64,000 nucleotides of DNA from Eubacteriales bacterium (lineage in GTDB: Bacteria > Bacillota > Clostridia > Oscillospirales > CAG-272), in assembly GCA_034086705.1 (NCBI GenBank), contig JAXDZV010000030.1, positions 82,933 to 146,932 on the forward strand, read 5' to 3'. The translations under genes were made by a program, and so were the position numbers. The notes under the pieces were generated by a model. It was not told the DNA's origin, ran no database searches, and worked only from the letters and a program-made list of their open reading frames with translations. Below, in pieces: positions 3,298-33,540 of the stretch (positions are counted from its first letter, which is position 1; the number at the start of each line of letters is the position of its first letter).

Positions 3298-3564
3298 ATC
3301 GAACAAATAATAACGGCAATGACGAAGACGGTCGAAGCGTTTTGTTTGCAGAGAGTCGGCGGTAGGTGCAAGCCGATAGCGATCCCTTCACAGACCCATC
3401 CCTTCCGAGCCGGGAGGCTGAAGTACATACAGTAGGCTCTCTCCGTGAGGCTGCGTTAAAGCACAGGGCTTGTTAGAGCTCGATGAGCGGCGTTTTTTTA
3501 CGCAATTTTGAGTGGTACCGCGGGTTACACCCGTCTCAAAGAATTTTGAGACGGGTGTTTTTTA
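3298..3564 (+). promoter_or_regulatory. T-box leader 1 (tentative specifier AUC, Ile) with terminator
   Basis: Stem I elements: GA/K-turn TGACGAAG...CTTCCGAGCC, AG bulge AGAGAG and distal loop GGTAGGTGCAA. The T-box sequence TTGAGTGGTACCGCGGG lies at about 3508-3524. The terminator ACACCCGTCTCAAA/TTTGAGACGGGTGT plus a T-run lies at 3527-3564. The triplet just 5' of the basal CUUC helix is AUC (3398-3400). Confidence 0.85.
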
Positions 3565-3598
3565 TTTGTCCGACACAAAAAGAAGGAGATTCAGCAAA

Positions 3599-8576: not shown

Positions 8577-9271
8577 TTTCAACACAAAAACGTATCAGTC
8601 TTTTTTGCGGACATTACGGAAGCGGCAAAACCAACATCGCCATCAACTATGCATGTATGTTACGTGCAGCAGGGCTTGCGGTCAGCGTAGCAGATATGGA
8701 TATTGTCAATCCCTACTTCCGCACGAGCGATAGCCGTGAAATGCTCCAACGCGCCGGAATTGGGCTAGTCTGCTCCCCATATGCAGGATCAAATGTTGAT
8801 CTTGCTGCGCTTCCAAAAGAGCTATATGATTTGGTGCGTTGCCGTGACGTATATGCCGTGATGGACGTGGGCGGAGACGAACGCGGTGCGCTGGCATTGG
8901 GTCGTTATGTTCCGGAAATATTGGAAGAAGATAATTATGCAATGTACTTTGTTGTCAATTTTGCGCGCCCTTTAACACGCACCGCAGACCAGGCCTTCGA
9001 TATTCTGCGTGAAATTGAGCAAGCTGCGGGTATGCGCTGTACCGCGATTGTGCATAATACCAATCTTGCCACGCAAACTACGCCACAGACCTTGCTGCAC
9101 TACATCGATGCACTGCAACAGCTGCGCCAAAAAAGCGGCCTTCCTGTTGCCTTTTGGTCAGCTGAGCACACATTAATACCGGCCTTGGCCGATGCACTTG
9201 CGGCACATACGGACAAAGCATTATACCACGAGCTTTTTCCCCTGCATTTGCAGGCAAAAATAACGGATTGA
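8573..9271 (+). CDS. P-loop NTPase of unknown role (MinD/ParA/CooC-like size, Walker A GHYGSGKT)
   Basis: 232 aa, with an ATGA overlap onto the stop of the upstream synthetase. The Walker A motif sits near the N-terminus, and DMDIVNPYF and VMDVGGDERG are Walker B/switch-like segments. Confidence 0.7.
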   Translation: MISTQKRISLFCGHYGSGKTNIAINYACMLRAAGLAVSVADMDIVNPYFRTSDSREMLQRAGIGLVCSPYAGSNVDLAALPKELYDLVRCRDVYAVMDVGGDERGALALGRYVPEILEEDNYAMYFVVNFARPLTRTADQAFDILREIEQAAGMRCTAIVHNTNLATQTTPQTLLHYIDALQQLRQKSGLPVAFWSAEHTLIPALADALAAHTDKALYHELFPLHLQAKITD

Positions 9272-9504: not shown

Positions 9505-10584
9505 ATGAGCGAAAAAGTATTGATGAAAGGAAACGAAGCCATTGCAGAAGCTGCTATTATGGCAGGCTGCCGCCATTACTTCGGGTATCCAATTACACCA
9601 CAAACTGAAATCGCCGCATATATGGCAAAACGTATGCCGCAGATCGGCGGGTGTTTTTTACAAGCAGAGAGCGAAATTGCAGCTATCAACATGGTATACG
9701 GCGTTTCCTCAGCGGGGTATCGCGTTATGACCTCTTCTTCCAGCCCTGGGATTGCATTGAAAAGCGAAGGCCTATCCTATCTGGCCGGTGCTGACCTGCC
9801 AGCACTGGTGGTCAATGTACAGCGCGGCGGACCGGGCCTTGGAGGAATTCAGCCCTCGCAATCAGATTATTTTCAGGCAACCAAAGCCGGCGGACACGGT
9901 GATTTTCGAATGATCGTACTTGCTCCTGCTTCCGTTCAGGAAATGGCGAATTTAACTTTGTGCGGCTTTGCACTGGCAGATCAATATCGTATGACAGCAA
10001 TGATTCTCGCCGATGGTACAATGGGCCAAATGATGGAGCCGGTGAGCTTCGAGCAACCCCCTCTGCAGGAAGTGGAAAAACCCTGGGCAGTCCGTGGTAC
10101 TGAAAATATGCGTCCGCATAATATCATCAATTCTCTGTATCTGGTGCCGGAAGAGCTGGAACGAAAAAATGTGGAACGCTTTGCGCGCTATGCGGAAATT
10201 GAAAAGAAGGAAGCTCGCTGTGAAGAATACCACGTAGAAGACGCAGACATCATCGTCGTTGGGTTCGGCATTGCCGCACGTGTTGCCAAAAGCGCCGTAG
10301 ACGCGGCGCGGGCTCAGGGAATCCGCGTTGGGTTGATTCGCCCGATCACGCTTTGGCCATTTCCCAAAGAGGCGCTGTACCGTGCCGCTACACACGCTAA
10401 ACGTTTCATTTCAGTTGAGCTTTCTATGGGACAAATGGTGGAAGATATTTCACTTGCTATTCACTGCAAGGCGCCCGTGGACCTTTGCTTCCGTACGGGG
10501 GGGATGATTCCGTCTCCTGAGCAAGTTCTCAACGCCATTACAGATGCAAAAACAAAAATTGACACAGAAAGGACGCCTTGCTGA
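9505..10584 (+). CDS. vorB: 2-oxoacid:ferredoxin oxidoreductase alpha subunit (VorB-like, 3-methyl-2-oxobutanoate type)
   Basis: 359 aa. The N-terminus MKGNEAIAEAAIMAGCRHYFGYPITPQTEI is typical of the short POR/VOR/KOR alpha subunits, and the gene sits in a four-subunit operon. Confidence 0.85.
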   Translation: MSEKVLMKGNEAIAEAAIMAGCRHYFGYPITPQTEIAAYMAKRMPQIGGCFLQAESEIAAINMVYGVSSAGYRVMTSSSSPGIALKSEGLSYLAGADLPALVVNVQRGGPGLGGIQPSQSDYFQATKAGGHGDFRMIVLAPASVQEMANLTLCGFALADQYRMTAMILADGTMGQMMEPVSFEQPPLQEVEKPWAVRGTENMRPHNIINSLYLVPEELERKNVERFARYAEIEKKEARCEEYHVEDADIIVVGFGIAARVAKSAVDAARAQGIRVGLIRPITLWPFPKEALYRAATHAKRFISVELSMGQMVEDISLAIHCKAPVDLCFRTGGMIPSPEQVLNAITDAKTKIDTERTPC

Positions 10585-10600
10585 AGGCCGGAACATATGT

Positions 10601-11350
10601 ATGATCGTATTTGAAAAACCGAAGGTGTTAACCGACAAGCCGCTGCATTATTGCCCCGGCTGTACACATGGAATTGTTCATCGTCTGGTTGCGCAGGCGA
10701 TTGAAGAGCTTTCCATCGAAGGAAAAACAATTGGCGTTGTGCCGGTTGGCTGTTCTGTTATGGCATATGACTATTTCAAAACCGATATGGTAGAGGCCTC
10801 GCATGGGCGGGCGCCTGCCGTTGCAACCGGTCTGCGCCGTGCGTTACCCGACCGTGTGATTTTTACATACCAAGGCGACGGCGATCTCGCCTCCATCGGC
10901 ACTGCAGAAACAGTACATGCCGCCGCACGCAATGAGAATATCACCGTTATTTTTATTAATAACGCCATCTACGGTATGACAGGCGGCCAAATGGCTCCGA
11001 CTTCCCTTCCCGGCCAGGTAACGCAAACTTCCCCCTATGGCAGAGATGTCAAACAATGTGGTTATCCTGTGAAAATCTGCGAAATGCTGGCGCAACTGGA
11101 GGGCCCGGCTTATCTGGAGCGTGTTGCCGTTAACAACGTCAAACACGTGTTGGCAGCAAAAAAAGCGATTCGCCGTGCATTTGAAAACCAACTTGCAGGT
11201 AAAGGCTTTTCGCTGATCGAAGTGCTTTCCTCCTGCCCCACGAACTGGGGAATGACACCGGAAAAAGCCTTGGACTGGATAGAAGAAAAAATGATTCCGT
11301 ATTATCCGCTCGGCGTGTTTAAGGACAGAGACAAGGAGGCAGTTCAATGA
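10601..11350 (+). CDS. 2-oxoacid:ferredoxin oxidoreductase beta subunit (TPP-binding)
   Basis: HYCPGCTHG cluster-ligand motif and TPP motif GDGDLASIG...NNAIYGMTGGQ. Start trimmed to the ATG at 10601, after the alpha-subunit stop at 10584. Confidence 0.85.
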   Translation: MIVFEKPKVLTDKPLHYCPGCTHGIVHRLVAQAIEELSIEGKTIGVVPVGCSVMAYDYFKTDMVEASHGRAPAVATGLRRALPDRVIFTYQGDGDLASIGTAETVHAAARNENITVIFINNAIYGMTGGQMAPTSLPGQVTQTSPYGRDVKQCGYPVKICEMLAQLEGPAYLERVAVNNVKHVLAAKKAIRRAFENQLAGKGFSLIEVLSSCPTNWGMTPEKALDWIEEKMIPYYPLGVFKDRDKEAVQ

Positions 11351-11886
11351 GCACTACCAAGATTCTGATTGCCGGATTCGGTGGGCAAGGCGTACTGTTT
11401 GCCGGCAAATATCTCGCATATCAGGGATTGCTGGAAGGCAGACAGCTTTCCTGGCTCCCTTCATACGGGCCCGAAATGCGCGGCGGAACTGCAAATTGCA
11501 GTGTCATTCTTTCTGACGAACCAGTCGGCTCACCGATTGTCACAGAACCGGACGTTCTGATCGTCATGAACCTCCCCTCCTATGATAAATATGAAAGCAG
11601 TGTAGTTTCCGGCGGCCTTATCCTGCTGGACAGCTCGTTGATTGACCGACCCACCGCGCGTTCTGATGTGCGCACCGTCCGTGTACCAGCCACAGCAATG
11701 GCCCGCGAACAGGGCATTCCAACACTTGCCAATATGATCTTGCTCGGCCAGTTTTTTGCTTGCAGCGGCGCCGCTGATTTTGCCAATACCGATGCGGTAT
11801 TGAAAAAAGTAATCTCACAAAAACATATGGATCTCTTTGCGCTGAATCGCAAAGCGCTGGAGCTCGGATATCATTATCAGGCGTAA
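11347..11886 (+). CDS. 2-oxoacid:ferredoxin oxidoreductase gamma subunit
   Basis: 179 aa with an ATGA overlap onto the beta subunit. [14 protein letters not shown] is the typical gamma-subunit N-terminus. Confidence 0.85.
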
Positions 11887-11899
11887 AGGAGAAAACGAC

Positions 11900-12976
11900 A
11901 TGGAAATTCGCTATATTGCCCCCACAGAGCTTCGTGCGCATCCGGATGAAAGTGCGCTTGGCTTCGGCAAATATTTTACCGACCATATGCTCACCGTAGA
12001 GTATGATCGAGAAAATGGTTGGCACGACGCCTGCATTGCGCCATTCGGTCCAATCGCACTGCATCCGGCCTCAACCGTTCTGCATTACGGCTCTGAAGTT
12101 TTTGAAGGGTTGAAAGCTTATCGCGCGGCAGACGGTTCTGTCCGCCTATTTCGCCCCATTGAAAATGTACGACGCATGAACCAATCAGCAGAGCGCTTGG
12201 GGCTGCCACAAATGGACGAACAGGAAATGCTCTCTCTCATCCTTGAGATTGTTCGCAAAGATGAAGATTGGGTACCGCATTTACCAGGTACCTCCCTGTA
12301 CATCCGCCCGTTTTTATTTGGGAATGATGCAAATCTTGGTGTCCATTCCATTCATCGTGCCACCTTTGTCATCATTCTCTCACCGGTCGGCGCCTACTAT
12401 GCAGAGGGGATCAATCCTGTGAAAATCCGCATTGAAACAGAAGATGTCCGTGCCGTGCGCGGCGGCACCGGCTATGCAAAGTGCGGAGGAAACTATGCTG
12501 CTTCCGTGCGCGCCGGAGAAAAAGCAGAAAAAGAGGGCTTTACCCAGGTATTATGGCTGGACGGCGTTCATCGCAAGTATATTGAAGAGGTGGGCGCAAT
12601 GAACGTTATGTTTAAAATCAACGGCACCATCATCACCCCGCAGCTCACCGGATCCGTTTTGCCCGGAATCACACGAAAATCCTGTATTACGCTGTTGCAC
12701 GATTGGGGGTATTCCGTCGAAGAACGACTGCTCAGCGCCGAAGAGTTGTTTGCTGCAGCGGAAAGCGGTGCTTTGGAAGAAGCATTCGGCACTGGGACGG
12801 CTGCCGTTGTCTCTCCCATCGGTCTTTTGCGCATGAATGAACGCTCATTCACCGTCAACCACGGCAAAATTGGGCCGCTAACGCAGCGTTTATATGACAC
12901 TCTGACAGGAATCCAATGGGGTACATGCCCCGATCCGCACAATTGGATCTGCCCGCTGCGGAATACACAAGCATAA
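11900..12976 (+). CDS. ilvE: branched-chain amino acid aminotransferase (fold type IV, long form)
   Basis: 358 aa with FGKYFTDHM, YGSEVFEGLKAY, LYIRPF and GGTGYAKCGGNYAAS, which are characteristic of BCAT. Confidence 0.9.
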   Translation: MEIRYIAPTELRAHPDESALGFGKYFTDHMLTVEYDRENGWHDACIAPFGPIALHPASTVLHYGSEVFEGLKAYRAADGSVRLFRPIENVRRMNQSAERLGLPQMDEQEMLSLILEIVRKDEDWVPHLPGTSLYIRPFLFGNDANLGVHSIHRATFVIILSPVGAYYAEGINPVKIRIETEDVRAVRGGTGYAKCGGNYAASVRAGEKAEKEGFTQVLWLDGVHRKYIEEVGAMNVMFKINGTIITPQLTGSVLPGITRKSCITLLHDWGYSVEERLLSAEELFAAAESGALEEAFGTGTAAVVSPIGLLRMNERSFTVNHGKIGPLTQRLYDTLTGIQWGTCPDPHNWICPLRNTQA

Positions 12977-13199: not shown

Positions 13200-15503
13200 T
13201 CAGGAGTCACTCTGCGTTTCTGCACGGAGGTGCTCCAGCATTTCTTTTGCATCTACAAGCAGCTCCCTTGCCGCCTCCGCTGATGCCGCATCCGCAATTA
13301 AACGCAGCGCAGCCCGCCGCTCCGGTCGCAACAGAACCCAACCGCTGTCCCGACGAATCCGCAATACATCCGGTATATGCCATACTTCGTCTGGATGTGA
13401 GGGGGTGTGCAATTTTCCAAGTGCCCGCATCAAAGCAGCCTTTTCTGCCACAGGCATCAAAACAGTCATACGTCGTCTGACATGCTGCGGCTGTGCCGCA
13501 CATAGCGCAGACAGCGAAGTGCCTGTCTGTGAAAGGAGTGTCACCAGTGTCGCAGCCCCAAAAATCGGGTTGGAAATCGGTAAAACAGATGCATATAATT
13601 TGCGCGCTGCAATCGACGGATCATCCGGCCCCGGACAATGCGTAAATCGCTCAACAGTAAATCCCGCCTCTTCTCCCAACGACTCGAAAAAAGCAGGCGC
13701 TGCCGCAGGCAGCCCGACACGTGTTAGCTGCCATGTTCCAGCACAATAACGCAGCAGCGTACCGGCAATTGCCCATGTGTCAAACTCTTTTCCGTTTTCA
13801 AACGCGATCAACTCTCCCCATTCGTTCAAGCACAGTTGCAAAGCGGCTTCCCGATGCGGTAGCTTTCCGTATGCCGCAAAATAGGGGCCAAGTATGGCTT
13901 TGGCTGCAACACCGGCAAAGCAGAACGGATACGTTTGTGTGGTTGTACTGAAAAAAGGCAATAGAGCACGCCGCAGCAAATATCGCACATCTGTCGATGG
14001 CAAAACCGTACACGGCTCTGCAACACTGCCCCCTTGCGAGAGCCCTTGCTCTAAAAGGCGCTCCGTTGCGCGCACAGGGTACAATCCGTTTTCATCTAAG
14101 AGTACCGCTGTACAGCGTCTGCCGTCAAACCGGATAAACAAAGTCAACGCACAGCCGTAATGCAATGCAGCAAACGAGCTTTCCGGGCGTGAGAGCACAC
14201 CGAAATCAACCGTTTTACCGCCGGCAGCCGCACATGCGGCTGCTGCCAACGACACAGTCGCTGCGCTGACAGCATGCCCGTCACTGCTGAAGCCCACCGG
14301 CCCGGGCAATCCTGCCGCTGCAAACGCAAGCGCCGCTCCGAATCGCGCACAAAACACCGTATCCGGCTTTTCCTGCGCAAAGAGTTCTATCTCACTGTGG
14401 GAAAATCGATCCTGCACAACACGAAACCCGTCAAATACCGCGTCTGTTTCTTCCTGTGTTGCAGCCGGGGCAGACATTGTCTGCGCGGCACATGTTGTCC
14501 CCGCAGGTAAGTGCAGCCCTCGCTGCAGACAAATCCCGGGGGCAACCGTCACACCGCTGCCAAGCACGCATCCGGGCGTCACAAAGGCACGTGCACCGAT
14601 CCAAGCTCCCTGCGCAATCATAGCACCCTCAACATGCGCATGCGCACCAACTGTAACACTATCCAGCAAAATACTTTGCTGCAACTGTGCCGTTGGATCC
14701 AGGCGGCAACCGTCTGAAATAATACAACCATGTTGTAAGACACCCTCCCGCGGCTGAATCCCCTCAATCTCGCCACGTGCCAGCTGAAAATTGCAGGCAA
14801 AATACGCATCCAATGTTCCGATATCACACCAGTACCCGCGCATCTCTTCGCCACGTAGCAAAATACCGTCTCGCAATGCCGCAGGAAAAATATCTTTACC
14901 AAAATCACTCGGTCTGTCTTGCGGAATGCGCGCAATAAACCGTGGTGTGAGCAAATACATACCGGTGTTGACCGTATCCGGTGCTGCACTGAAGGCGCTC
15001 GGCTTTTCGGCAAAAGCACGTATACTGCCATCCGGTGCACACAGAACAACACCAAGCGAACTGACGTCTGCTGTGTGGCTTAGGAGCAAGGTTGCCTCTG
15101 CTCCCCCCGCGCGATGCCGCGCCAATGCCGCAGAAAGGTCAAAATTGCACAGCGCGTCTGCACTGATAACCAAAACTTCCCGCTGCGAAAAATCACCTAC
15201 CGACATTAACGCCGCACGCACACCGCCTGCTGTCCCCAGAGGTGTCTGCTCGACAGCATACCGTAGACGGATCCCCTCTGCCTGCTCCCCATAATACTGA
15301 CGAATTTGCTCCGCACGATAACATAAACTGACAATCGCCTCCGTGTATCCATGCCGGGCGAGCAACCTTAAAACATGCGTCATCGCCGGCTCTGCAGCAA
15401 TTGGCACCAAAGGCTTTGGAAGTGTATCTGTCAATGGGCGAAGCCGCCTGCCTTCTCCTCCCGCCATGATGATCGGAATCGGGCGATTTATTGTTTCGTT
15501 CAT
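13200..15503 (-). CDS. sugar-phosphate nucleotidyltransferase (NTP-transferase + left-handed beta-helix) with a long PGM/PMM-like C-terminal region
   Basis: IIMAGGEGRRLRPLTDTLPKPLVPI is the nucleotidyltransferase signature and is followed by hexapeptide-like repeats. The C-terminal ~400 aa resembles a phosphohexomutase scaffold, but I see no SHNP-type active-site loop. Start set at the ATG at 15503 (AAAGGAA about 11 nt upstream); the ORF track starts at 15542. Confidence 0.6.
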   Translation of the reverse strand: MNETINRPIPIIMAGGEGRRLRPLTDTLPKPLVPIAAEPAMTHVLRLLARHGYTEAIVSLCYRAEQIRQYYGEQAEGIRLRYAVEQTPLGTAGGVRAALMSVGDFSQREVLVISADALCNFDLSAALARHRAGGAEATLLLSHTADVSSLGVVLCAPDGSIRAFAEKPSAFSAAPDTVNTGMYLLTPRFIARIPQDRPSDFGKDIFPAALRDGILLRGEEMRGYWCDIGTLDAYFACNFQLARGEIEGIQPREGVLQHGCIISDGCRLDPTAQLQQSILLDSVTVGAHAHVEGAMIAQGAWIGARAFVTPGCVLGSGVTVAPGICLQRGLHLPAGTTCAAQTMSAPAATQEETDAVFDGFRVVQDRFSHSEIELFAQEKPDTVFCARFGAALAFAAAGLPGPVGFSSDGHAVSAATVSLAAAACAAAGGKTVDFGVLSRPESSFAALHYGCALTLFIRFDGRRCTAVLLDENGLYPVRATERLLEQGLSQGGSVAEPCTVLPSTDVRYLLRRALLPFFSTTTQTYPFCFAGVAAKAILGPYFAAYGKLPHREAALQLCLNEWGELIAFENGKEFDTWAIAGTLLRYCAGTWQLTRVGLPAAAPAFFESLGEEAGFTVERFTHCPGPDDPSIAARKLYASVLPISNPIFGAATLVTLLSQTGTSLSALCAAQPQHVRRRMTVLMPVAEKAALMRALGKLHTPSHPDEVWHIPDVLRIRRDSGWVLLRPERRAALRLIADAASAEAARELLVDAKEMLEHLRAETQSDS

Positions 15504-15806
15504 AAAAATCATATTCCTTTCTGCATGCGCGTATGGGGCCATGTTCGGCTGTTCGCACAGGTCCTATGCGCTTGCGTGCAGCATTCTGAACCTACTTGCC
15601 ATAAATGCAGCAGGTGGAGCTTTTTTCAAATATAAAAAATGCTCCGAAAACAGTTTTTGCCGCCGTATTTCAGAATATACGCTCCAAAATTCTCAAAAAA
15701 TTCACATCTATTTGTAAGAAACTATTCCATTTTTCAAGTATCCGTGGTAAAATAAAATGTTGTTGTATGAATTGATAATAATTTTGACAGGAGTTGCCCA
15801 AAAGCT

Positions 15807-17683: not shown

Positions 17684-17712
17684 TTGACAAAAAAAGCGTG
17701 CTCTGCTACAAT
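17684..17712 (+). promoter_or_regulatory. sigma-70-type promoter of T-box unit 3
   Basis: TTGACA at 17684-17689, a 17-nt spacer, then TACAAT at 17707-17712. Confidence 0.6.
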
Positions 17713-17718
17713 GTATGC

Positions 17719-18007
17719 ATAAAATCAATAAACAAATGCGCAGATGGAATTACGTGTTTCCACAAACATGCTCCAGAGAGGCAGCGGTAGGTGCGAGCTG
17801 CAGCATGGGGGAGAAACGGTCTCATTCCGGAGCAGGATCTCGGAAGGGCGCTACGGTAAGTGTTGCCATAGTATGAGATCCCGGAGGCCCCGTTACCATG
17901 GCTGTAGGATTGAAAGATCCTGAATAAGTGACCGTCTATGGACGGTAAGCAGGGTGGTACCGCGAATTTGTTTCGTCCCTGAGGTCTTTGACCTCAGGGA
18001 CTTTTTT
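17719..18007 (+). promoter_or_regulatory. T-box leader 3 (specifier CUC, Leu) with terminator
   Basis: AGAGAG bulge, distal loop GGTAGGTGCGA, and specifier context GAAACGGU-CUC-A-UUCC-GGAGCA pairing with a 5' GGAA. The T-box sequence AGGGTGGTACCGCG lies at 17951-17964. The terminator GTCCCTGAGGT/ACCTCAGGGAC plus TTTTTT lies at 17975-18007. Confidence 0.85.
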
Positions 18008-18037: not shown

Positions 18038-19444
18038 ATGAAAAACATGCAGATATGCCAGATACAGGATGAAACGCTGTGTTGCCAGCAGCAGACACAA
18101 AAGGCCCTTTCTTTCCGTGCCCGTATGGAAATTATCGGAAAACTGATTGCTGCCGGCGTGAATCTTATTGCATTGCCGATACCTGAAAATGAAAAAGCAG
18201 ATGCCCTTTTGTTAGATACGGTGGCACCGCTTGGCGAAAATGTTTGTTATGTCATTTCCGTTTCCTCCGTAGCACAAGCCCAACGCGCAGCTGCCGTGCT
18301 TATGCACGCAGCCCACGCCCGGCTATGTGTAGAACTTCCTCTTTCTGCCATCGGTATGGAGTATTCTTTACACAAAAAAGAAAAAGACATGATCGGTTTT
18401 GTCACAGATTTAATCTCTTCCTGCCGTACTCTGTGCAATCAAGTCAGCTTTTGCGCCGCAGACGCCTTTCGGGCAGATGTTACTTTTCTGAAAAGTGCTG
18501 TACAGGCTGCCGTATCTGCAGGTGCTGATACTGTAATTCTCAAAGACAATGCCGGGATCGCTCTGCCGTGGACAACGCAAACGCTCTTCCAATCTGTTGC
18601 TCAGCAGTTGCCCGCATCTGTCTGTCTCGGCGCCGCTTTTTCAAATACTGCTTTCATGGCTTGCGCCAACAGCGCGTGTGCTGTCCGCAGCGGCGCTGTG
18701 ATACTGCTCAGCGCCATTGGCAGCAATACCTTACCGGATACTGCAGCGCTTGGGTACACTATGCAGAGTCTTTCGCATACAGAAAAATATACAACTGCTC
18801 TCGTTACAACAGAGCTTTCTCGCCTGTGCGATGCGGTGCGCGCACAGCTTTGCGGGGTAGAACGTACCACGCAGCAACAACGTACCCCCGAACAGTTTCG
18901 TTTGACCAAAGATGCCAGCGCCACAGAAGTCGCACAGGCAGCTCGCACGCTCGGATATGATCTTTGCGCAGAAGACGCCGATCGCCTGTATGAAGCATTT
19001 CGCCGCGTTTCGGAGAAAAAAACGGTTGACAGCCGCGAACTGGACGCATTGATCGCATCGGAAACAATGCAGGTGCGTCCCACCTATACATTGGAGAAAT
19101 ATCTTGTAAACGCAGGCAACGTGATGACTCCGGCCGCGCAAATCACATTGCGTCGCGGCGAAGACCGGTTACAGGGAATTTCGATGGGAGACGGCCCGAT
19201 TGATGCAGCATTTCTAACCATTGAACAAATAATTGGATGCCATTTCGAATTAGATGCATTCGAAATTCAAGCGGTAACGGAGGGCCGCGGCGCAATGGGG
19301 TCCGCCGTTGTCAGACTCCGGGCAGATGGAAAACTATATAGCGGTATGGGCAGTTCAACGGACATCATCGGCGCATCTATCCGCGCTTACTTAAACGCCA
19401 TCAACAAAATCGTGTATGATGAAATGCAGTCACAAACACTCTAA
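18038..19444 (+). CDS. 2-isopropylmalate synthase (LeuA)-like protein with degenerate active site and intact LeuA-dimer/regulatory C-terminal domain
   Basis: Start at the ATG at 18038 (RBS AAGGAG), because the ORF-track start lies in the T-box terminator. The N-terminal motif reads DETLCCQQQ where LeuA/CimA have DTTLRDGEQ. The HxH metal site is replaced by AAFSNTAF. The C-terminus GDGPIDAAF...AVTEGRGAMGSAVVRLRADGKLYSGMGSSTDIIGASIRAYLNAINK matches the LeuA allosteric domain. Confidence 0.75.
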   Translation: MKNMQICQIQDETLCCQQQTQKALSFRARMEIIGKLIAAGVNLIALPIPENEKADALLLDTVAPLGENVCYVISVSSVAQAQRAAAVLMHAAHARLCVELPLSAIGMEYSLHKKEKDMIGFVTDLISSCRTLCNQVSFCAADAFRADVTFLKSAVQAAVSAGADTVILKDNAGIALPWTTQTLFQSVAQQLPASVCLGAAFSNTAFMACANSACAVRSGAVILLSAIGSNTLPDTAALGYTMQSLSHTEKYTTALVTTELSRLCDAVRAQLCGVERTTQQQRTPEQFRLTKDASATEVAQAARTLGYDLCAEDADRLYEAFRRVSEKKTVDSRELDALIASETMQVRPTYTLEKYLVNAGNVMTPAAQITLRRGEDRLQGISMGDGPIDAAFLTIEQIIGCHFELDAFEIQAVTEGRGAMGSAVVRLRADGKLYSGMGSSTDIIGASIRAYLNAINKIVYDEMQSQTL

Positions 19445-19467: not shown

Positions 19468-21969
19468 ATGAAATTATGCTTTTCTACCAAAGGGTGGCAC
19501 GGCGTGCTTTGGCAAGATTTTGTGAAAACGGCACACGCACTTGGCTTTTCCGGTATTGAGTTGCACAATTTGCACGACCCGGTATTCGCACGTACCGGTT
19601 CGCCGCGAGATCCGTATGCTGCAGGACAAATCAAACACGATTTGTTTTGTAAAGGCTTGGAAATTCCCTGTATCGATTCCATTACAGATTTGTTAGACGA
19701 TACATCTGCCGAAGAAAAATGTGAAGAAATCAGTGTTTGTTTGCGCACTGCCGCAGATCTTTCTGTTCCGTATGTACGTGTGCGTGCATACGATCATCCC
19801 GGCGCCCCACAGGCACAAGATGATACAGTGCTTTATCTGTTGCAACGGTTGCTGCCCGTAGCACAAGCAGCAAATTGCGAGCTATTGCTTGAAACAGCGG
19901 GGCCGTATGCAGACACGGCACGCCTGCGTCGTTTACTCGATCGACTCGCTTGCGACGGCATCGGTGTGCTATGGGACCTATATGCACCATGCATGGAAAA
20001 AGCAGAACCCCCGCAGCAAACTGTCACCAACCTCGGCGCATTTGTACGCCATGTGCACATCCGCGATTTTGCTCCGGAAAGCGGTACTTTTTGCCTCATG
20101 GGAGAAGGCGCCGTGCCCACACAGACACTGATCGGAGCATTGGAAAGCATCAACTACGCCGGCCATATTTGCTTTGAGTGGGACCCCACCTGGCTGCCGG
20201 AAGCAGCAGACATGCATTTGGTCTTTGCTCACTTTCGCAGTTATATGAGCCGTTACGAAAAAAAAGCTGTACAAGAAATTTACTATAACAAGTTGCACAC
20301 CGGCCGTAGAATTTGGCCCAAAGAGGTTTTAATCCGCGAAACATTTCCACAGGTTTTGGATCGCGTAGCAGAAGAGTTCCCAGACCAAATTGCTTTTAAA
20401 TATACAACTTTGGATTATACGCGCACCTATGCACAATTTCGGCGAGATGTGGATACGTTTGCGCGCGCGCTGGTTGCGTTGGGTGTTAAAAGCGGCACAA
20501 AAGTCGCCGTTTGGGCAACCAATGTTCCGGCATGGTACATTGCATTTTGGGCAACTGTCAAAATCGGTGCAGTGTTGGTTACTGTAAACACTGCATATAA
20601 AATCCACGAAGCAGAATACTTGTTGCGCCAATCTGATACACACACACTGATTTTGGTTGAACGCTGCCAAGACTCTGATTATGCGGAAATTATCCGTACC
20701 CTTTGTCCTGAACTTATCGGCAAACCAGCGCGTGATGTTTTGCATGCCGAGCGTCTTCCTTTTTTACGCCGCATCATCACCGTTGGATTTCAGATGGAAG
20801 GCTGCCTGCGCTTTGAGGATGCGATGGCATTGGCAGATTCTGTTTCCGAAGAACGGATTCGCCGCCTTGCAGCTGCTGTTCAACCGGAGGACGTATGCAA
20901 TATGCAATATACCTCCGGCACAACCGGATTTCCAAAAGGTGTCATGCTCACCCATCACGGTGTCGTAAACAACGGAAAATGTATCGGAGACCGCATGGAT
21001 CTTTCCACCGCTGATCGGATGCTGATTCAGGTACCTATGTTCCACTGTTTTGGTATGGTACTGGCAATGACTGCCGCTATGACACACGGCGCAACGCTAT
21101 GTCCTCTACCTTATTTCTCTGCTAAAAATTCACTTGCTTGCATCAACGCAGAGCATATCACAGTCTTTCACGGCGTTCCGACGATGTTCATCGCTATGTT
21201 CAATCACCCAGATTACAAAAAAACAGATTTTTCGTATATGCGCACCGGAATTATGGCCGGATCGGGCTGTCCTGCAGATTTGATGCGTCGCGCAGCACAG
21301 CCGGATGAAATGAATATGCGGGGCATTGTTTCCGTATACGGTCAGACCGAGGCTGCACCGGGTTGTACCATGAGTGAGCTGGACGACCCATTGGATGAGC
21401 GCTGCGAAACAGTCGGGCATGCTTTGCCGCACGTTGAATGTCGCATCATCGATCCCCAAACGGGCGCAGAATGCGCCGTCGGGGAAAACGGCGAATTTGT
21501 TGCACGCGGATATAATGTGATGAAAGGATATTACAAAATGCCGGATGCTACTGCCGCTGCGATTGATGCAGATGGCTGGTTGCATACGGGAGACCTTGCT
21601 TGTAAAACCCCACAGGGGAACTATAAAATCACCGGCAGGCTGAAAGACATGATTATCCGCGGCGGCGAAAACATTTATCCCAAAGAGATCGAAGAATTTA
21701 TATATACCTGTCCTAAAGTACGTGATGTGCAGGTGGTTGGCGTAAGCGATCGGCAATACGGAGAAGAGATCTGTGCTTGTGTGATTCTCAAAAAAGGAGA
21801 ACAAATGACACAAGAAGAATTGCAAAGTTTTGTGCGCAGCCATATGGCACGGCATAAGGTGCCACGGTATGTCGATTTCATGGACACCTTCCCCATGAAT
21901 GCAGCGGGGAAAATTCTAAAATATAAATTGCGCGAACAGGCAGAACAGCGTCATTGCCAAAATGACTAA
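19468..21969 (+). CDS. xylose-isomerase-like TIM-barrel domain fused to AMP-dependent acyl-CoA synthetase
   Basis: 833 aa. The first ~265 aa look like a sugar-phosphate isomerase/epimerase (AP-endonuclease-2 type) barrel (GFSGIELH..., LLLETAG, FEWDP). The remainder is an ANL enzyme with YTSGTTGFPKGVMLTH, YGQTEA, LHTGDL and GGENIYPKEIE. Confidence 0.85.
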   Translation: MKLCFSTKGWHGVLWQDFVKTAHALGFSGIELHNLHDPVFARTGSPRDPYAAGQIKHDLFCKGLEIPCIDSITDLLDDTSAEEKCEEISVCLRTAADLSVPYVRVRAYDHPGAPQAQDDTVLYLLQRLLPVAQAANCELLLETAGPYADTARLRRLLDRLACDGIGVLWDLYAPCMEKAEPPQQTVTNLGAFVRHVHIRDFAPESGTFCLMGEGAVPTQTLIGALESINYAGHICFEWDPTWLPEAADMHLVFAHFRSYMSRYEKKAVQEIYYNKLHTGRRIWPKEVLIRETFPQVLDRVAEEFPDQIAFKYTTLDYTRTYAQFRRDVDTFARALVALGVKSGTKVAVWATNVPAWYIAFWATVKIGAVLVTVNTAYKIHEAEYLLRQSDTHTLILVERCQDSDYAEIIRTLCPELIGKPARDVLHAERLPFLRRIITVGFQMEGCLRFEDAMALADSVSEERIRRLAAAVQPEDVCNMQYTSGTTGFPKGVMLTHHGVVNNGKCIGDRMDLSTADRMLIQVPMFHCFGMVLAMTAAMTHGATLCPLPYFSAKNSLACINAEHITVFHGVPTMFIAMFNHPDYKKTDFSYMRTGIMAGSGCPADLMRRAAQPDEMNMRGIVSVYGQTEAAPGCTMSELDDPLDERCETVGHALPHVECRIIDPQTGAECAVGENGEFVARGYNVMKGYYKMPDATAAAIDADGWLHTGDLACKTPQGNYKITGRLKDMIIRGGENIYPKEIEEFIYTCPKVRDVQVVGVSDRQYGEEICACVILKKGEQMTQEELQSFVRSHMARHKVPRYVDFMDTFPMNAAGKILKYKLREQAEQRHCQND

Positions 21970-22957: not shown

Positions 22958-23830
22958 ATGAATCGATTTAAAATTGGTGTAATGGCAGACTGGTTAGGCG
23001 GCACGTTCCGTCAAAACATCGAGACAACCGCAGCCATGGGCGCACAAGGCGTGCAACTATATGCAACAGGAGAATTCAGCGATTTCACACCGGACACCGT
23101 AAAAGGAGAGCGTCTGCGAGAAACAAAACGAATTCTTGCCGCAAACGGGATCGAAGTTAGCGCCTTGTGCGGCGACCTCGGCGGGCACGGATTTCAAATC
23201 CCGAAGGACAATGTTTGGAAAATTGAAAAATCCAAGCGCATCATCGATCTGGCGCTGGAGCTTGGTGCAAACGTTGTAACCACGCATATCGGTGTTGTCC
23301 CTGACACGGTTAATGACACTTATCAAATTATGCAACAGGCTTGTAATGAGCTGGCTGAATATGCCCAAAGCGTCGGTGCATATTTTGCCGTAGAAACCGG
23401 GCCGGAGAAAGCCGCCATGCTCAAGGAGTTTTTAGACAGCCTTTCTGCCCGCGGCGTGCGTGTAAACTTTGACCCCGCCAATTTGGTAATGGTAACGCAA
23501 GACGATCCGGTTGCTGCTGTACCGCTCCTGGGGGATTACATTGTCCATACCCATGCCAAAGACGGTGTAAACCTCAAGCCCTGCGATCGACATGCGATTT
23601 ACAATAGCTTTGCTGAGGGCGGCGTAGACGGTTTTTCCGCAGGTGATTATATGAAAGAGCTCCCCCTCGGACAAGGCAATGTAGACTTTCCCGCCTATAT
23701 TGCAGCACTTGCTGCAATCGATTACCGTGGGTATCTCACCGTTGAGCGTGAGGTACGCGAAGACCCTCGGGCTGACATCGAAATGGCAGTCGGCTTTCTG
23801 AAAGAACTAACCGCATCTTATCAAATCTGA
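22958..23830 (+). CDS. sugar phosphate isomerase/epimerase (xylose-isomerase-like TIM barrel)
   Basis: Start at the ATG at 22958 after RBS AGGAGG. VVTTHIG, FAVETG, NFDPANL, HAKD and TVERE are typical barrel metal-site segments. Confidence 0.75.
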   Translation: MNRFKIGVMADWLGGTFRQNIETTAAMGAQGVQLYATGEFSDFTPDTVKGERLRETKRILAANGIEVSALCGDLGGHGFQIPKDNVWKIEKSKRIIDLALELGANVVTTHIGVVPDTVNDTYQIMQQACNELAEYAQSVGAYFAVETGPEKAAMLKEFLDSLSARGVRVNFDPANLVMVTQDDPVAAVPLLGDYIVHTHAKDGVNLKPCDRHAIYNSFAEGGVDGFSAGDYMKELPLGQGNVDFPAYIAALAAIDYRGYLTVEREVREDPRADIEMAVGFLKELTASYQI

Positions 23831-26368: not shown

Positions 26369-28225
26369 ATGATGAAAAAAGAACAGCTATTGCGCCTGGT
26401 GCAAAAGCCAGGCAGATATACCGGTGGGGAATTTGGACAAACCGTCAAAAACAAAGCTGATGTGGCATGCCGCATTGCGTTCTGCTTTCCGGATACTTAT
26501 GAGATTGGTATGTCCAATCTGGGCGTGCGTATTCTGTACAGTGCGCTCAATACACAACCGGATGTTTGGTGTGAACGTGCATACGCCCCTTGGACGGATA
26601 TGGAATCGCTGATGCGGCAGCACCATGTGCCCTTATGGGCACATGAAAGCGGAGATCCGCTGCGCCAATTTGACTTTGTTGCGTTTACTCTACAATATGA
26701 GCTATGCTATACAAATGTACTGAACATGTTGGAGCTGGCAGGTATTCCGTTGCGTGCCGAAGATCGAGATGAAAATGACCCCATTATCCTCGGCGGCGGG
26801 CCATGTGCGTATAACCCGGAACCCGTTGCAGACTTTTTTGACATCTTCTCCATTGGAGAGGGTGAACAGGCCCTGGTGGAATTGGCGCGGCTTTATATCT
26901 CTATGCGGCAAACGGGCACATATTCCAAGAGAAACTTTTTGCGCCGCGCCGCGCAGTTGGATGGCTTTTATGTTCCCAGCTTATATACCGTCAGCTATCA
27001 TCCAGACGGAACCATTGCCGCCTTTACGCCAAAATACGACGATGTGCCGCATACCATCCGCAAACGGATCGTTACAAATATGGACCAAGCACATTTTCCG
27101 CAAAGTTATGTCATGCCGTATATTGAGACGGTACATGACCGTATCATGCTGGAAGTTGCCCGCGGGTGTCCGCGCGGGTGCCGCTTTTGCCAGGCTGGTA
27201 TGATTTTTCGTCCCGTTCGCGAAAAATCGCCTCAAGTTCTCTGCGATCAAGCAATCTGTCAATTTCAACATACCGGCTTTGATGAAATATCTCTTTCTTC
27301 TCTATCGATCAGCGATTACTCACAGCTAACTGTATTAACCGACGCTCTACTCGATTGGACGAATGACCGAAAAGTCAGTCTTTCATTACCCTCTTTGCGC
27401 GCAGATAGCTTTACGGATGAACTGATGCACAAGGTCAGCAGTGTGCGAACCTCCACACTGACCTTTGCACCGGAAGCCGGTACACAGCGGCTACGTGACG
27501 TTATCAACAAAAATGTAACCGAACAGGAAATATTAGATGCCTGTGCCATTGCCTTCCGTGGCGGTAAAACACAGGTGAAACTGTATTTTATGATTGGACA
27601 CCCGACAGAACGTGATGAGGATCTTGCCGGTATCGCCTCGTTGTGTCAGGCAGTAATTTCTTCCTTTTACCGTTTACCTGATCGGCCGAAAGGACGTGGG
27701 CCGAGCGTGACCATGAGTGTTGCTTCATTTATTCCCAAGCCCTTTACCCCCTTTCAATGGGAACCGCAGGATACGCTGCAAACGACCTTGGAAAAGCAAC
27801 AACAAATCGGTACAATGCTCACTGACCGCCGTATTCGCTATCATTATCACGATGCAAAAGTCAGTCGTTTGGAGGCTGTTTTCGCTCGTGGCGATAGGCA
27901 GCTGGCAAAGGCGCTCTTAGAAGCACGACGACGCGGTGTCTGTTTTGACAGTTGGACGGAACATTTTGACTACGACCGTTGGTGCGATATTTTCGACACA
28001 GTTGGATTGTCGATGGATTTTTATACAACACGCGGCTTTGCGGAGGATGAAATTTTGCCTTGGGATATGATTGATATTGGGGTCAGCAAATCGTTTTTAC
28101 TACGCGAAAAACACCGTGCATATGCGGGAAAAACCACGCCCAACTGCATGGAGCAATGCAGCGGCTGCGGGGCGGATTGTCTGGGAGGTGAGAAAACATG
28201 GTGCAAGGGCAAACTGAAACGGTAA
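26369..28225 (+). CDS. B12-binding-domain radical SAM protein (TIGR03960-like)
   Basis: 618 aa with the radical SAM cluster motif CPRGCRFCQAG. The N-terminal region FCFPDTYEIGMSNLG is typical of this conserved family. Confidence 0.8.
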   Translation: MMKKEQLLRLVQKPGRYTGGEFGQTVKNKADVACRIAFCFPDTYEIGMSNLGVRILYSALNTQPDVWCERAYAPWTDMESLMRQHHVPLWAHESGDPLRQFDFVAFTLQYELCYTNVLNMLELAGIPLRAEDRDENDPIILGGGPCAYNPEPVADFFDIFSIGEGEQALVELARLYISMRQTGTYSKRNFLRRAAQLDGFYVPSLYTVSYHPDGTIAAFTPKYDDVPHTIRKRIVTNMDQAHFPQSYVMPYIETVHDRIMLEVARGCPRGCRFCQAGMIFRPVREKSPQVLCDQAICQFQHTGFDEISLSSLSISDYSQLTVLTDALLDWTNDRKVSLSLPSLRADSFTDELMHKVSSVRTSTLTFAPEAGTQRLRDVINKNVTEQEILDACAIAFRGGKTQVKLYFMIGHPTERDEDLAGIASLCQAVISSFYRLPDRPKGRGPSVTMSVASFIPKPFTPFQWEPQDTLQTTLEKQQQIGTMLTDRRIRYHYHDAKVSRLEAVFARGDRQLAKALLEARRRGVCFDSWTEHFDYDRWCDIFDTVGLSMDFYTTRGFAEDEILPWDMIDIGVSKSFLLREKHRAYAGKTTPNCMEQCSGCGADCLGGEKTWCKGKLKR

Positions 28226-28905
28226 ACGGCACTGCTGCAACACTGCGTTTCCGCCTGCGCAAGACAGGCATGCTGCGTTTTATTTCCCATTTAGATTTTT
28301 TGCGCACCATGGAACACGCAGTTGTGCGAGCCGGACTGCCCGTGCGATATTCTGAGGGGTTCAATCCGCATGTAAAGCTCTCCTTCGGTATGCCGCTCTC
28401 TGTCGGTGCAGAAAGCGTTGCTGAGTACATGGATGTTCAGCTTCTACGCCCAATGGACACTGCACAGGCTATGGCATGTATGAATGCACAATTGCCGGAC
28501 GGGCTGCAAATTCTTGCAGCCGCACCGCCGGTGCACCGTTTTTCAGAAATATCCTGTGCAGAATACCTACTCCGGCTTTCTTATCCGGGGGCCAATGCGG
28601 CAGATGCAGCACGCATACAAACTCTGTGGAGCGGCCCGCTAACCGTGCTAAAACGCACAAAAAAAGGAGAAATGCAAGTTGACATTTCTCCTCTGATCCG
28701 TAAGGTACATCTTGTTGCAAGGCAAGAAGCGTTGGAAGCCACTGTGCTCCTGAGCGCAGCAAGTGACTCTTATCTCAATCCGGAATATTTGCTGCGTGCA
28801 GCTACGCAGGCACTTTCTATCCCAATGGAGGATCCGACACAAACGGACATATACGTGCTGCGACGTGCTGTGTTTTTGGCAGACGGTGTCACACCGTTTT
28901 CTTGA
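28198..28905 (+). CDS. radical-SAM-associated protein (DUF2344/TIGR03936-like)
   Basis: 235 aa, overlapping the end of the upstream radical SAM gene. FISHLDFLRTMEHAVVRAGLPVRYSEGFNPH is the family hallmark. Confidence 0.75.
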   Translation: MVQGQTETVNGTAATLRFRLRKTGMLRFISHLDFLRTMEHAVVRAGLPVRYSEGFNPHVKLSFGMPLSVGAESVAEYMDVQLLRPMDTAQAMACMNAQLPDGLQILAAAPPVHRFSEISCAEYLLRLSYPGANAADAARIQTLWSGPLTVLKRTKKGEMQVDISPLIRKVHLVARQEALEATVLLSAASDSYLNPEYLLRAATQALSIPMEDPTQTDIYVLRRAVFLADGVTPFS

Positions 28906-32024: not shown

Positions 32025-33239
32025 CTACTGCAACACAACTTTCTTGAAATTCTTCTTACCACGACGCAAAACAACACCCTCTTGCAGCGCCACGGATGAA
32101 AAAGACGCATGGATATCCGCAATTTTTTCTCCGTCCGCACTGACACCCCCCTGTTCCACCGCACGCCGTGCCTCCGAACGCGATGCACAAAGGCCCGCGG
32201 CACAAAGCAACGTCAAAATATCTGCCTGATTATTTGTAAGAATGTCCGTGCCAATAAAAATTTGGGGAGCATCTGCACCGCCACTGAAAACGGAACGTGC
32301 TGCCGCACGTGCCTGCTCTGCCTGTGCCGTTCCATGTACCAAAGCAGTAAGCTCATATGCCAGAATTTCTTTTTTCTCATTGATACGGGTGTCCGGCCAA
32401 TTTTCCATTTGTGCAATGTCCGAAAGCGGCAAAAACGTCAGCATGCGCAAGCATTTCATCACATCTGTATCTGCAACATTGCGCCAATACTGATAAAACT
32501 CAAACGGTGTGGTTTTTTTCGGGTCAAGCCATACCGCCCCCTTTTGCGTTTTGCCCATTTTTTTACCCTCTGAATTCAGCAGAAGCGTGATCGTCATCGC
32601 GTGTGCATCTTTGCCAAGCTTACGGCGTATGAGCTCCGTGCCGCCAAGCATATTGCTCCATTGATCGTCACCGCCAAATTGCAGATTACAGCCGTATTTT
32701 TCATACAGTTCCAGAAAATCATAGCTCTGCATCAGCATATAATTAAATTCCAAGAAAGACAGCCCTTTTTCCAAACGCTGTTTATAGCATTCCGCACGTA
32801 GCATCTGATTCACAGAGAAACATGCTCCCACTTCGCGTAAAAAGGCAACATAATTCAGCTGCATCAGCCAGTCTGCGTTGTTCACAAGCAACGCTTTTCC
32901 TTCGGAAAAATCAATAAATCTGCTCATCTGTTCCCTAAAGCAGGCAACGTTATGTGCAATGTTCTCAACCGTCAGCATAGAACGCATATCGGTCCGTCCG
33001 GAAGGATCTCCCACCATAGCGGTACCGCCGCCGAGCAAAGCAATCGGGCGGTTGCCCGCCATTTGTAGCCGCTTCATCAGGCAAAGTGCCATAAAATGTC
33101 CAACATGCAGACTGTCTGCCGTCGGGTCAAATCCGATATAAAACACCGCACGCCCCGTATTGATCAATTCTGCAACTTTTTCTTCATTGGTAACTTGCGC
33201 AATCAAGCCGCGCGCTTTCAGCTCTTCGTATACTGTCAT
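32025..33239 (-). CDS. tyrS: tyrosine--tRNA ligase
   Basis: 404 aa from the ATG at 33239 (RBS AGGAAGGAA). It has a HIGH-type motif (DSLHVGH), KMGKT (KMSKS variant) and a C-terminal S4-like domain. The upstream part of the track ORF is the T-box leader. Confidence 0.95.
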   Translation of the reverse strand: MTVYEELKARGLIAQVTNEEKVAELINTGRAVFYIGFDPTADSLHVGHFMALCLMKRLQMAGNRPIALLGGGTAMVGDPSGRTDMRSMLTVENIAHNVACFREQMSRFIDFSEGKALLVNNADWLMQLNYVAFLREVGACFSVNQMLRAECYKQRLEKGLSFLEFNYMLMQSYDFLELYEKYGCNLQFGGDDQWSNMLGGTELIRRKLGKDAHAMTITLLLNSEGKKMGKTQKGAVWLDPKKTTPFEFYQYWRNVADTDVMKCLRMLTFLPLSDIAQMENWPDTRINEKKEILAYELTALVHGTAQAEQARAAARSVFSGGADAPQIFIGTDILTNNQADILTLLCAAGLCASRSEARRAVEQGGVSADGEKIADIHASFSSVALQEGVVLRRGKKNFKKVVLQ

Positions 33240-33290
33240 TGTTCCGTTCCTTCCTAACAAAACTTTTATTGAAGAATTTTTTCTCCCGAT

Positions 33291-33535
33291 AAAAAACGCC
33301 CTCTGCCACACGCAGAGGGCGTTACAAACGCGGTACCACCTCAGTTCGTGTTCGCCAACACGAACACCTCTTCTCCCGATATAACGGTCGAACCGGCGCA
33401 GCCTACACAAAAAACTTTTTCTCTTCGGTGCGCAGCTCCCACGGTGTATTTCCAAAGTGCTCTGCCTCCGCCTTGCATCTTCCGGCGTCTTTCTGCACAC
33501 ATAACAGCTTTGTACTTCTCCGCGATCTTTGCTTT
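33291..33535 (-). promoter_or_regulatory. T-box leader 4 (specifier UAC, Tyr) with terminator
   Basis: Read on the minus strand: GGTGGTACCGCG (33329-33340), the terminator AACGCCCTCTGCGTGTGGCAGAGGGCGTTTTTT (33291-33323), and the specifier context GGAAA-UAC-A (UAC = 33446-33448). Confidence 0.9.
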
Positions 33536-33540
33536 TTTAC

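Follow-up and report, generated by a model that had tools for sequence, protein, structure and literature searches.

The locus and the architecture of the fusion

We analysed a stretch of 64,000 nucleotides from an Eubacteriales bacterium (Bacillota; Clostridia; Oscillospirales; CAG-272), namely, positions 82,933 to 146,932 of contig JAXDZV010000030.1 in assembly GCA_034086705.1, which is referred to here as the window. The gene of interest, at 19468..21969 on the plus strand, encodes a protein of 833 amino acids (aa), hereafter the fusion, in which a TIM barrel of the xylose isomerase type is joined to an acyl-CoA synthetase of the ANL superfamily of adenylating enzymes. It follows a gene for a degenerate homolog of 2-isopropylmalate synthase (LeuA), and both lie downstream of a T-box leader. 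The features of this operon, together with a second T-box of the window that bears on the reading of the first, are as follows.

17684..17712 (+): sigma-70-like promoter, TTGACA, 17-nt spacer and TACAAT with an extended TG (11 of 12 consensus matches)
17732..17983 (+): T-box leader (Rfam RF00230; 109.2 bits against a gathering score of 93, E = 3e-23)
17975..18007 (+): T-box terminator hairpin, a 12-bp stem and a T-run, overlapping the 3' half of the antiterminator
18038..19444 (+): pseudo-2-isopropylmalate synthase (pseudo-LeuA), 468 aa, with a degenerate HMGL-like barrel and an intact LeuA_dimer domain (Pfam)
19468..20262 (+): fusion aa 1-265, xylose-isomerase-like TIM barrel, AsbF/Art22-like (Pfam, profile matches, AlphaFold2 model, ligand conservation)
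20263..20358 (+): fusion aa 266-297, conserved linker, LYxNxxHTGxYxWxKxxLIxxTFxQVL (alignment)
20359..21969 (+): fusion aa 298-833, ANL acyl-CoA synthetase, N- and C-terminal domains, core motifs intact (Pfam, NCBIfam)
33312..33538 (-): second T-box, 103.3 bits, specifier UAC (Tyr), upstream of tyrS (32025..33500, -)

The open reading frame (ORF) of the fusion starts with ATG, contains no internal stop codons and has an AGGAG ribosome-binding site 8 nt upstream of its start. Three Pfam domains were found in it: first, AP_endonuc_2 at aa 20-240 (E = 1.7e-19; 70.9 bits against a gathering score of 31.1); second, AMP-binding (PF00501) at aa 298-689 (E = 1e-88; 298.2 bits against 29.9); and third, AMP-binding_C (PF13193) at aa 740-815 (E = 1e-17; 65.2 bits against 24.5). 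The uninterrupted ORF and these three domains uphold what the initial annotation had read from the sequence, namely, a PF01261 barrel joined in a single frame to a complete ANL enzyme, and they give the N-terminal barrel the support of a hidden Markov model.

In an AlphaFold2 (AF2) model of the fusion the barrel is predicted with confidence as alternating strands and helices, at a predicted local distance difference test (pLDDT) score of about 90-95, and aa 266-317, which include the linker, fall below 50. A model of the barrel made from its single sequence, without an alignment, reached a pLDDT of 46.5. When the full-length model was used in a fold search, the matches covered the ANL half only, with a best TM-score of about 0.53 when normalised to the query, and no solved two-domain homolog was among them.

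Recurrence of the fusion in two clades

The combination of AP_endonuc_2 with AMP-binding, for which the initial annotation had suggested a search, recurs with the same domains and length in the best 120 database clusters, all of which hold proteins of 812-848 aa with all three domains and 62-69% identity. At least 580 barrel matches were confirmed when one genome per species was scanned. The carriers of this first clade (clade A) are mostly metagenome-assembled genomes (MAGs) of Oscillospirales, from the families Acutalibacteraceae, Oscillospiraceae and Ruminococcaceae, and come from the guts of ruminants and other animals. Another clade (clade B), deeply diverged from this one, is represented by at least 557 confirmed matches in metagenomes from digesters, fermenters and the human gut, and its members share with the window protein 38% identity over the barrel, 46% over the linker and 67% over the ANL half. 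Both clades keep the linker motif, which in its longer form reads LYxNxxHTGxYVWxKDxLIxxTFxQVLDR (fusion aa 271-299; window 20278..20364) and which may serve as a docking element between the barrel and ANL domains.

These data establish the barrel-ANL fusion as a real, widespread and uncharacterised enzyme family of gut and rumen Clostridia, which is ancient and falls into two deep clades. Its named members are all MAG proteins titled 'AMP-binding protein' or 'AMP-dependent synthetase'; the cluster members sampled are MAG records only, with no cultured carrier, and we found no characterised member. Likewise, the literature searched yielded no publication on the barrel-ANL architecture, nor on a leucine T-box upstream of an acyl-CoA ligase.

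A fusion created by sequencing, a possibility raised in the initial annotation, is excluded because the architecture recurs in clusters, species genomes and metagenomes; and an assembly artefact or a recent, pseudogene-like joining of two neighboring genes has a vanishingly small probability, since it would have to produce the same architecture and length across more than 120 protein clusters and hundreds of independent assemblies, a conserved linker, and an identical protein on 14 contigs from different samples, with nothing in its favor beyond a possible split in one MAG. This MAG, labelled Peptococcaceae (L018, 138..2666), has separate ORFs for the barrel (320 aa) and the ligase (504 aa), with 51 nt between them, as the result of either a genuine split or an erroneous frameshift.

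Leucine control of the operon

The T-box of the window aligns to RF00230 over its full length (model positions 1-219), with the T-box core GGGUGGUACCGCG at 17952..17964 (+) and the terminator at 17975..18001. The promoter, which as a consensus match is the best site of the region, lies 20 nt upstream of it. We read the specifier codon as CUC (Leu; 17821..17823), followed by a purine (CUC-A, 17821..17824), because in the Rfam alignment the specifier loop shows GGU-CUC-A ahead of the closing helix. This register is valid, since the T-box of tyrS reads UAC at the same alignment position.

The specifier is shared by both clades. Of the 51 clade-A leaders with a T-box core, 48 have CUC by a context-anchored count, 96-139 nt from that core and with variable flanking bases. 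A core also precedes 30 of 68 clade-B fusions, and seven of the eight clade-B leaders confirmed with Rfam carry CUC when their specifiers are read, as was done for the window, from Rfam alignments. The remaining leader (L108, 7594..7857) carries UUC (Phe), one base away from CUC, which may be a specificity switch or a mere mutation; rumen bacteria also make phenylalanine from phenylacetate.

T-box surveys place the specifier 1-5 nt upstream of a conserved GAG, and report that it fits the function of the gene in all verified cases, the regulated genes being ligases, biosynthetic genes and transporters that match the specifier (PMC2494555). The CUC triplet, specifically, confers leucine control on the ilv-leu operon of Bacillus subtilis (PMC2494555). 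Given the known T-box mechanism, read-through into the operon should occur when tRNA-Leu is uncharged. Because leucine T-boxes precede fusions of clade A and also fusions of clade B, which has no pseudo-LeuA partner, it is very probable that the fusion itself belongs to the leucine regulon, with or without this partner.

A degenerate LeuA homolog as partner of the fusion

The protein encoded upstream of the fusion has the domain order of LeuA, and its HMGL-like (72.6 bits) and LeuA_dimer (100 bits) domains are both above their gathering scores. Against the LeuA equivalog model it reaches 211 bits, short of the cutoff of 532, and most of this score comes from the C-terminal regulatory region, which scores as LeuA and not as citramalate synthase. 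The family was aligned to authentic LeuA from Escherichia coli and to PDB 3rmj. In the window protein LCCQQQ stands in place of LRDGEQ, and AAFSNT in place of HxHxD. None of the 71 family members has His at either of the HxH positions or retains the GIGERAGN segment, and the residue at the Asp position varies among them. Mean conservation is 0.76 in the regulatory domain, with 45 near-invariant positions, and 0.55 in the barrel, with 20. Since the residues that define the DRE-TIM metallolyase family are lost, pseudo-LeuA is predicted to be catalytically dead.

The association of this protein with the clade-A fusion is nearly invariant. Neighbors were counted by tblastn over 80 loci, of which the 53 of at least 12 kb are taken as well covered. 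Pseudo-LeuA is present in all 53, and its gene is the upstream neighbor, on the same strand, at 72 of the 73 loci where the upstream gene could be called. The gap between the two genes has a median of 1 bp, and a 4-bp overlap of the ATGA type is the commonest arrangement. The clade-A fusion is thus positioned for translational coupling to pseudo-LeuA, which we propose to be its leucine-sensing partner. At the clade-B fusion loci pseudo-LeuA is absent (0/80), and no conserved neighbors are found.

Genes around the fusion

Upstream of the leucine operon the window contains a block of genes related to branched-chain acid metabolism, all of them on the plus strand.

3512..5875 and 6282..8576 (+): two tandem HTH-Cupin-ANL genes with MbcS-like ligase domains (Pfam, MbcS model)
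8573..9271 (+): P-loop NTPase, weakly CbiA/ParA/NUBPL-like
9505..11886 (+): ketoisovalerate:ferredoxin oxidoreductase (VOR) alpha, beta and gamma (VorB model 535 bits against a cutoff of 399)
11900..12976 (+): branched-chain aminotransferase (BCAT; equivalog 462 bits against a cutoff of 307)

In the window it is the VOR alpha subunit that passes the VorB cutoff. Of the 53 well-covered loci, 27 have VOR or BCAT no more than 10 kb from the fusion. Independent database gene calls also place these genes in single-strand strings, one of them with VOR-alpha/beta/gamma, BCAT, pseudo-LeuA, the fusion and a gene of the Amidohydro_2 family, and another, equally tight, with Fer4, VOR-alpha/beta/gamma, pseudo-LeuA, the fusion and Amidohydro_2. 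VOR and BCAT would provide the downstream steps of the pathway to which the fusion contributes. The two HTH-Cupin-ANL genes score best with the MbcS model, with 427 and 404 bits where the cutoff is 850, and MbcS-like genes are found near the fusion in 24 of the 80 loci; the products of the two window genes would activate isobutyrate and 2-methylbutyrate in the same pathway context. MetA and MetY are also recurrent neighbors of the fusion, and no homologs of LeuB, LeuC or LeuD were found in the 2.18 Mb formed by the window and the fetched loci.

Some of these neighbors deserve a description of their own. The HTH-Cupin-ANL proteins (787 and 764 aa) have three parts, namely, a helix-turn-helix of the XRE type, a Cupin_2 domain and the MbcS-like ligase; the HTH-cupin part is found in other genomes as a separate protein of 182 aa, encoded next to a 559-aa ligase. 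The joining of a DNA-binding, ligand-sensing domain to an acyl-CoA synthetase is in itself an unusual arrangement. The P-loop NTPase, of about 220-230 aa, is found directly upstream of the VOR genes in the window, and 28 of the 80 related loci contain a homolog; a role in the Fe-S maturation of VOR is possible. The Amidohydro_2 gene (PF04909; 267-268 aa) is absent from the window but lies directly downstream of the fusion in about one third of the clade-A loci, often 2-12 nt past its stop codon (for example, L166 6531..7334 and L167 6523..7326), and has no NCBIfam match.

Between the VOR/BCAT block and the leucine operon, and only in the species of the window, lies a gene for a 780-aa protein (13200..15542, minus strand) with a nucleotidyl transferase domain, a hexapeptide-repeat region and a weak phosphoglucomutase domain I. 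Further downstream, at 26369..28905 (+), a B12-binding radical SAM protein (TIGR03960, 907 bits) is followed by TIGR03936, an uncharacterised conserved pair without relation to the fusion. The remainder of the window consists of housekeeping genes. As for the second barrel that the initial annotation had pointed out downstream of the fusion (22958..23830), its existence was confirmed (PF01261, E = 1e-33), but not a place in this system: it shares only 23% identity with the fused barrel, and both it and the YegS-like kinase gene that precedes it were rejected as parts of the system, with no counterpart in any of the 80 related loci.

Active-site residues of the two halves

The core motifs of the ANL half, namely, A3 (TSGTTGFPKG, 482-491), A5 (GQTE, 625-628), A7 (D709), A8 (R724, D727 and R731) and A10 (K815), are invariant in clade A. 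Among 52 full-length clade-B fusions, R731 is replaced by Ser in one, and K815 falls at an alignment gap in two. The best NCBIfam model for this half is PRK12583 (NF009233), at 647.8 bits and below the cutoff of 832, and the MbcS model (NF047394, cutoff 850) does not appear in the list of the 25 top-scoring models for the fusion. Its best similarity is to CoA-ligase families, which makes CoA the putative acyl acceptor, and no recurrent carrier-protein gene was found among the neighbors of the fusion loci. Gly625, invariant in the clade-A alignment, occupies what we take to be the position of the pocket-closing Trp in acetate-specific synthetases.

In the barrel of the window protein the candidate metal tetrad is formed by E142, D170, H197 and E237. 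The closest solved relatives, reached only by profile searches, are Art22 (8z1i; E = 1e-17) and AsbF (E = 2e-17). The AsbF alignment is full-length, and the E, D, H and SLEW metal-site positions are common to both proteins. No curated family of specific function was matched; there were weak hits to fructoselysine-3-epimerase and IolO, and none to a dehydroshikimate-dehydratase model. We agree with the initial annotation that the function of the protein cannot be read from either domain by itself.

The conservation of the barrel differs between the clades. All 62 clade-B sequences, 10 of them stand-alone barrels, retain E31, E142, D170, E180, H197, D200 and E237, which points to an active metalloenzyme. 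Single E142K, H197R, D170N or E237V changes occur in about 20% of the clade-A members, scattered over lineages, and the lineages with a substituted metal ligand retain the whole operon. Judging from residue conservation, the barrel of the clade without the partner resembles an active metalloenzyme, and that of the clade with the partner is under relaxed constraint. In clade A the barrel may have turned into a docking or regulatory module; alternatively, its substrate may be a precursor other than isovalerate, or the thioester.

Two loci, L144 (2879..5517) and L149 (6169..8807), carry the same pair of activities unfused and in reverse order, with an ANL gene (573 aa) separated by 111 nt from the gene for a clade-B-type barrel (268 aa). 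The unfused ANL enzyme belongs to the same subfamily as the fused one; in L144 it has no linker motif, and no T-box was found with Rfam at either locus. Because these loci hold the two activities as neighboring genes, the activities appear to belong together, in line with the functional link between barrel and ANL that the initial annotation had suggested.

A proposed role of the fusion in leucine supply

These data are best explained by a module for leucine supply, present in Oscillospirales and related Clostridia, in which the 833-aa protein acts as the catalytic component. The T-box, pseudo-LeuA and the linkage to VOR, BCAT and MbcS-like genes are the grounds on which we assign the enzyme to leucine supply and not to a generic metabolism of keto and hydroxy acids. 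The model that we propose in full, where the fusion is an isovalerate ligase induced by leucine starvation and pseudo-LeuA is its leucine sensor, is put forward tentatively, as its chances fall somewhat short of even. According to this model, the ANL half would use ATP and CoA to activate a short branched acid with the leucine skeleton, most likely isovalerate; VOR would reductively carboxylate isovaleryl-CoA to 2-oxoisocaproate; and BCAT would aminate the latter to leucine, as in the classical 'isovalerate carboxylation pathway' of the rumen. Pseudo-LeuA would be a leucine-binding allosteric subunit that exerts feedback on the new committed step, such that the double control normally held by LeuA, by T-box and by feedback, would be kept for this step.

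Two published observations are consistent with this model. MbcS takes 2-methylbutyrate and isobutyrate, and isovalerate only poorly (PMC10026030), which leaves isovalerate for a third ligase besides the two MbcS-like enzymes. In the account of Allison (1962, 1966) given in PMC7356843, rumen bacteria carboxylate isovalerate and aminate the product to leucine. We also count in favor of the rumen isovalerate route that the carriers are mostly gut Oscillospirales, of ruminants and other hosts.

Several points weigh against the model. The role of the barrel is its main gap: isovalerate needs no pre-processing, so that a domain whose clade-B ligands are kept in 62 of 62 sequences is left idle. The fused ANL half matches a generic family only, PRK12583 and that under its cutoff, which gives no pointer to a substrate. 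The AF2 model provides no orientation of the domains, and with a pLDDT below 50 in the linker the relative placement of the two active sites cannot be read from it. There are no VOR or BCAT genes near the clade-B fusions. In clade A, an Rfam scan found no T-box in 17 loci, about one third of those with sufficient upstream sequence, and T-box control is therefore frequent but not universal. Lastly, a leucine-sparing supply of lipid primers, which we consider below, fits the same data.

A variation of the model takes the barrel into account, by assuming that pseudo-LeuA and the fusion form a new leucine-feedback complex, with the dead LeuA as allosteric leucine sensor of a committed step that is not homologous to it, and with the barrel performing undescribed chemistry on a leucine-skeleton acid or its CoA ester. 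Together with VOR and BCAT, this complex would comprise the isovalerate-to-leucine genes, perhaps of a variant pathway. In this form we regard the model as unlikely.

Equally doubtful is a two-step enzyme, a more specific form of the two-step conversion hinted at in the initial annotation, in which the barrel would dehydrate, isomerise or epimerise a keto- or hydroxy-acid precursor into the leucine-skeleton acid, or act on its CoA ester, and the ANL half would activate it, so that the true substrate would not be free isovalerate. AsbF and AsbC offer a precedent for such a sequence. The full-length AsbF/Art22-like barrel, the metal tetrad with E31, E180 and D200 unchanged throughout clade B, the adjoining separate genes for barrel and ANL, and the frequent presence of Amidohydro_2 as the next gene all suit this explanation, as does the clade-B fusion, monocistronic and alone under a leucine T-box. 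However, a candidate precursor is not evident, no curated model of specific barrel function was matched, and about one fifth of clade A has replaced a metal ligand (E to K, H to R, D to N or E to V) while the operon remained whole.

In a further alternative the chemistry is that of the isovalerate model and only the fate of the product differs: isovaleryl-CoA would be made from external isovalerate as a primer for iso-odd branched-chain fatty acids, thereby sparing scarce leucine from degradation. MbcS does exactly this for other branched acids in Staphylococcus aureus (PMC10026030), T-box induction under leucine limitation fits, and the clade-B fusions have no VOR/BCAT linkage. Nonetheless, we consider this explanation improbable, as the clade-A operon is strung together with BCAT and VOR, the amino-acid biosynthesis genes MetA and MetY are recurrent neighbors, and the T-box genes surveyed are the ligases, biosynthetic genes and transporters that match the specifier (PMC2494555).

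The fusion as a non-canonical isopropylmalate synthase is disfavored, and we hold it to be very improbable. Here, the barrel-ANL protein would carry out both acyl activation and a metal-dependent condensation with 2-oxoisovalerate, replacing LeuA, and the dead LeuA would remain as its leucine-sensing subunit. This would account for the obligate pairing with a catalytically degenerate LeuA homolog whose regulatory domain is intact and for a leucine T-box like that of a genuine leuA, and the nearby VOR could provide 2-oxoisovalerate. Yet leuA usually clusters with leuB, leuC and leuD, for which the 2.18 Mb searched contained no homologs; clade B has the fusion and the T-box without a LeuA-like gene; the invariant Gly625 stands where, as we presume, acetate-specific enzymes carry Trp; and the ATP spent on local acetyl-CoA would bring no obvious benefit.

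Comparison with known systems

The proposed leucine-supply module shares features with five known systems. First, MbcS of S. aureus (NF047394) is likewise an ANL enzyme for external branched short-chain acids, and its homologs are neighbors of the fusion. However, the fused ANL half is PRK12583-like and only about 26% identical to the MbcS-like ligases of the window, and MbcS, poor on isovalerate, has neither a barrel, nor a LeuA-like partner, nor a reported T-box. Second, the ACSF2/YngI-type PRK12583 family provides the best curated model over the whole ANL half (648 bits), but the fusion stays below the cutoff of 832, and the members of this family are stand-alone proteins of about 550 aa whose substrate is left undefined by the model.

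Third, in petrobactin synthesis AsbF, a 3-dehydroshikimate dehydratase, makes 3,4-dihydroxybenzoate, and AsbC, an adenylating enzyme, activates this acid. AsbF and Art22 (8z1i) are the closest solved relatives of the fused barrel, with metal-site positions in common, but the relationship is remote (E of about 1e-17, by profile only), the fused barrel matches no dehydroshikimate-dehydratase model, AsbF and AsbC are separate proteins, and the regulation of the fusion points to leucine and not to aromatic or siderophore chemistry.

Fourth, LeuA itself has the domain order and the type of regulatory domain found in the partner, and the B. subtilis ilv-leu operon has the same CUC specifier as the fusion-operon leader. 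Unlike LeuA, the partner has neither the metal ligands nor the GIGERAGN segment, reaches 211 bits where 532 are needed, and belongs to an operon without leuBCD. Fifth, HisZ, a catalytically dead paralog of histidyl-tRNA synthetase, is the regulatory subunit of ATP phosphoribosyltransferase (HisG). The concept is alike, that is, a pseudoenzyme derived from an amino-acid-binding enzyme and recruited as the allosteric subunit of a first committed step; the families are unrelated, and for pseudo-LeuA complex formation and leucine binding are proposed.

Implications for leucine metabolism in gut Clostridia

The need of rumen and gut ruminococci for branched-chain volatile fatty acids, and their synthesis of leucine from isovalerate, have been known since the 1960s, and in the literature searched no genes are assigned to the isovalerate activation step or to its control. 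The fusion locus provides a concrete candidate for the activation step of this route, first described about 60 years ago. Uncultured Oscillospirales species carry the candidate by the hundreds, and metagenomes of the human gut, digesters and fermenters contain its second clade. In view of its context, namely, the leucine T-box, pseudo-LeuA and the VOR/BCAT genes, the fusion family is a strong candidate for isovalerate activation, to which an unexplained, catalytic-looking barrel is attached. At present the partner is labelled '2-isopropylmalate synthase' and the fusion 'AMP-binding protein', and because of these labels metabolic reconstructions of MAGs may wrongly credit these organisms with a working LeuA and miss the salvage route.

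If the proposed model is true, the committed enzyme of the isovalerate-to-leucine pathway would be named, an acyl-CoA ligase would join the repertoire of T-box regulons, and the dead LeuA would be a new case of a pseudoenzyme reused as an allosteric sensor. It would also pose an enzymological question, namely, what role a metal-dependent barrel of the xylose isomerase fold plays beside an ANL active site.

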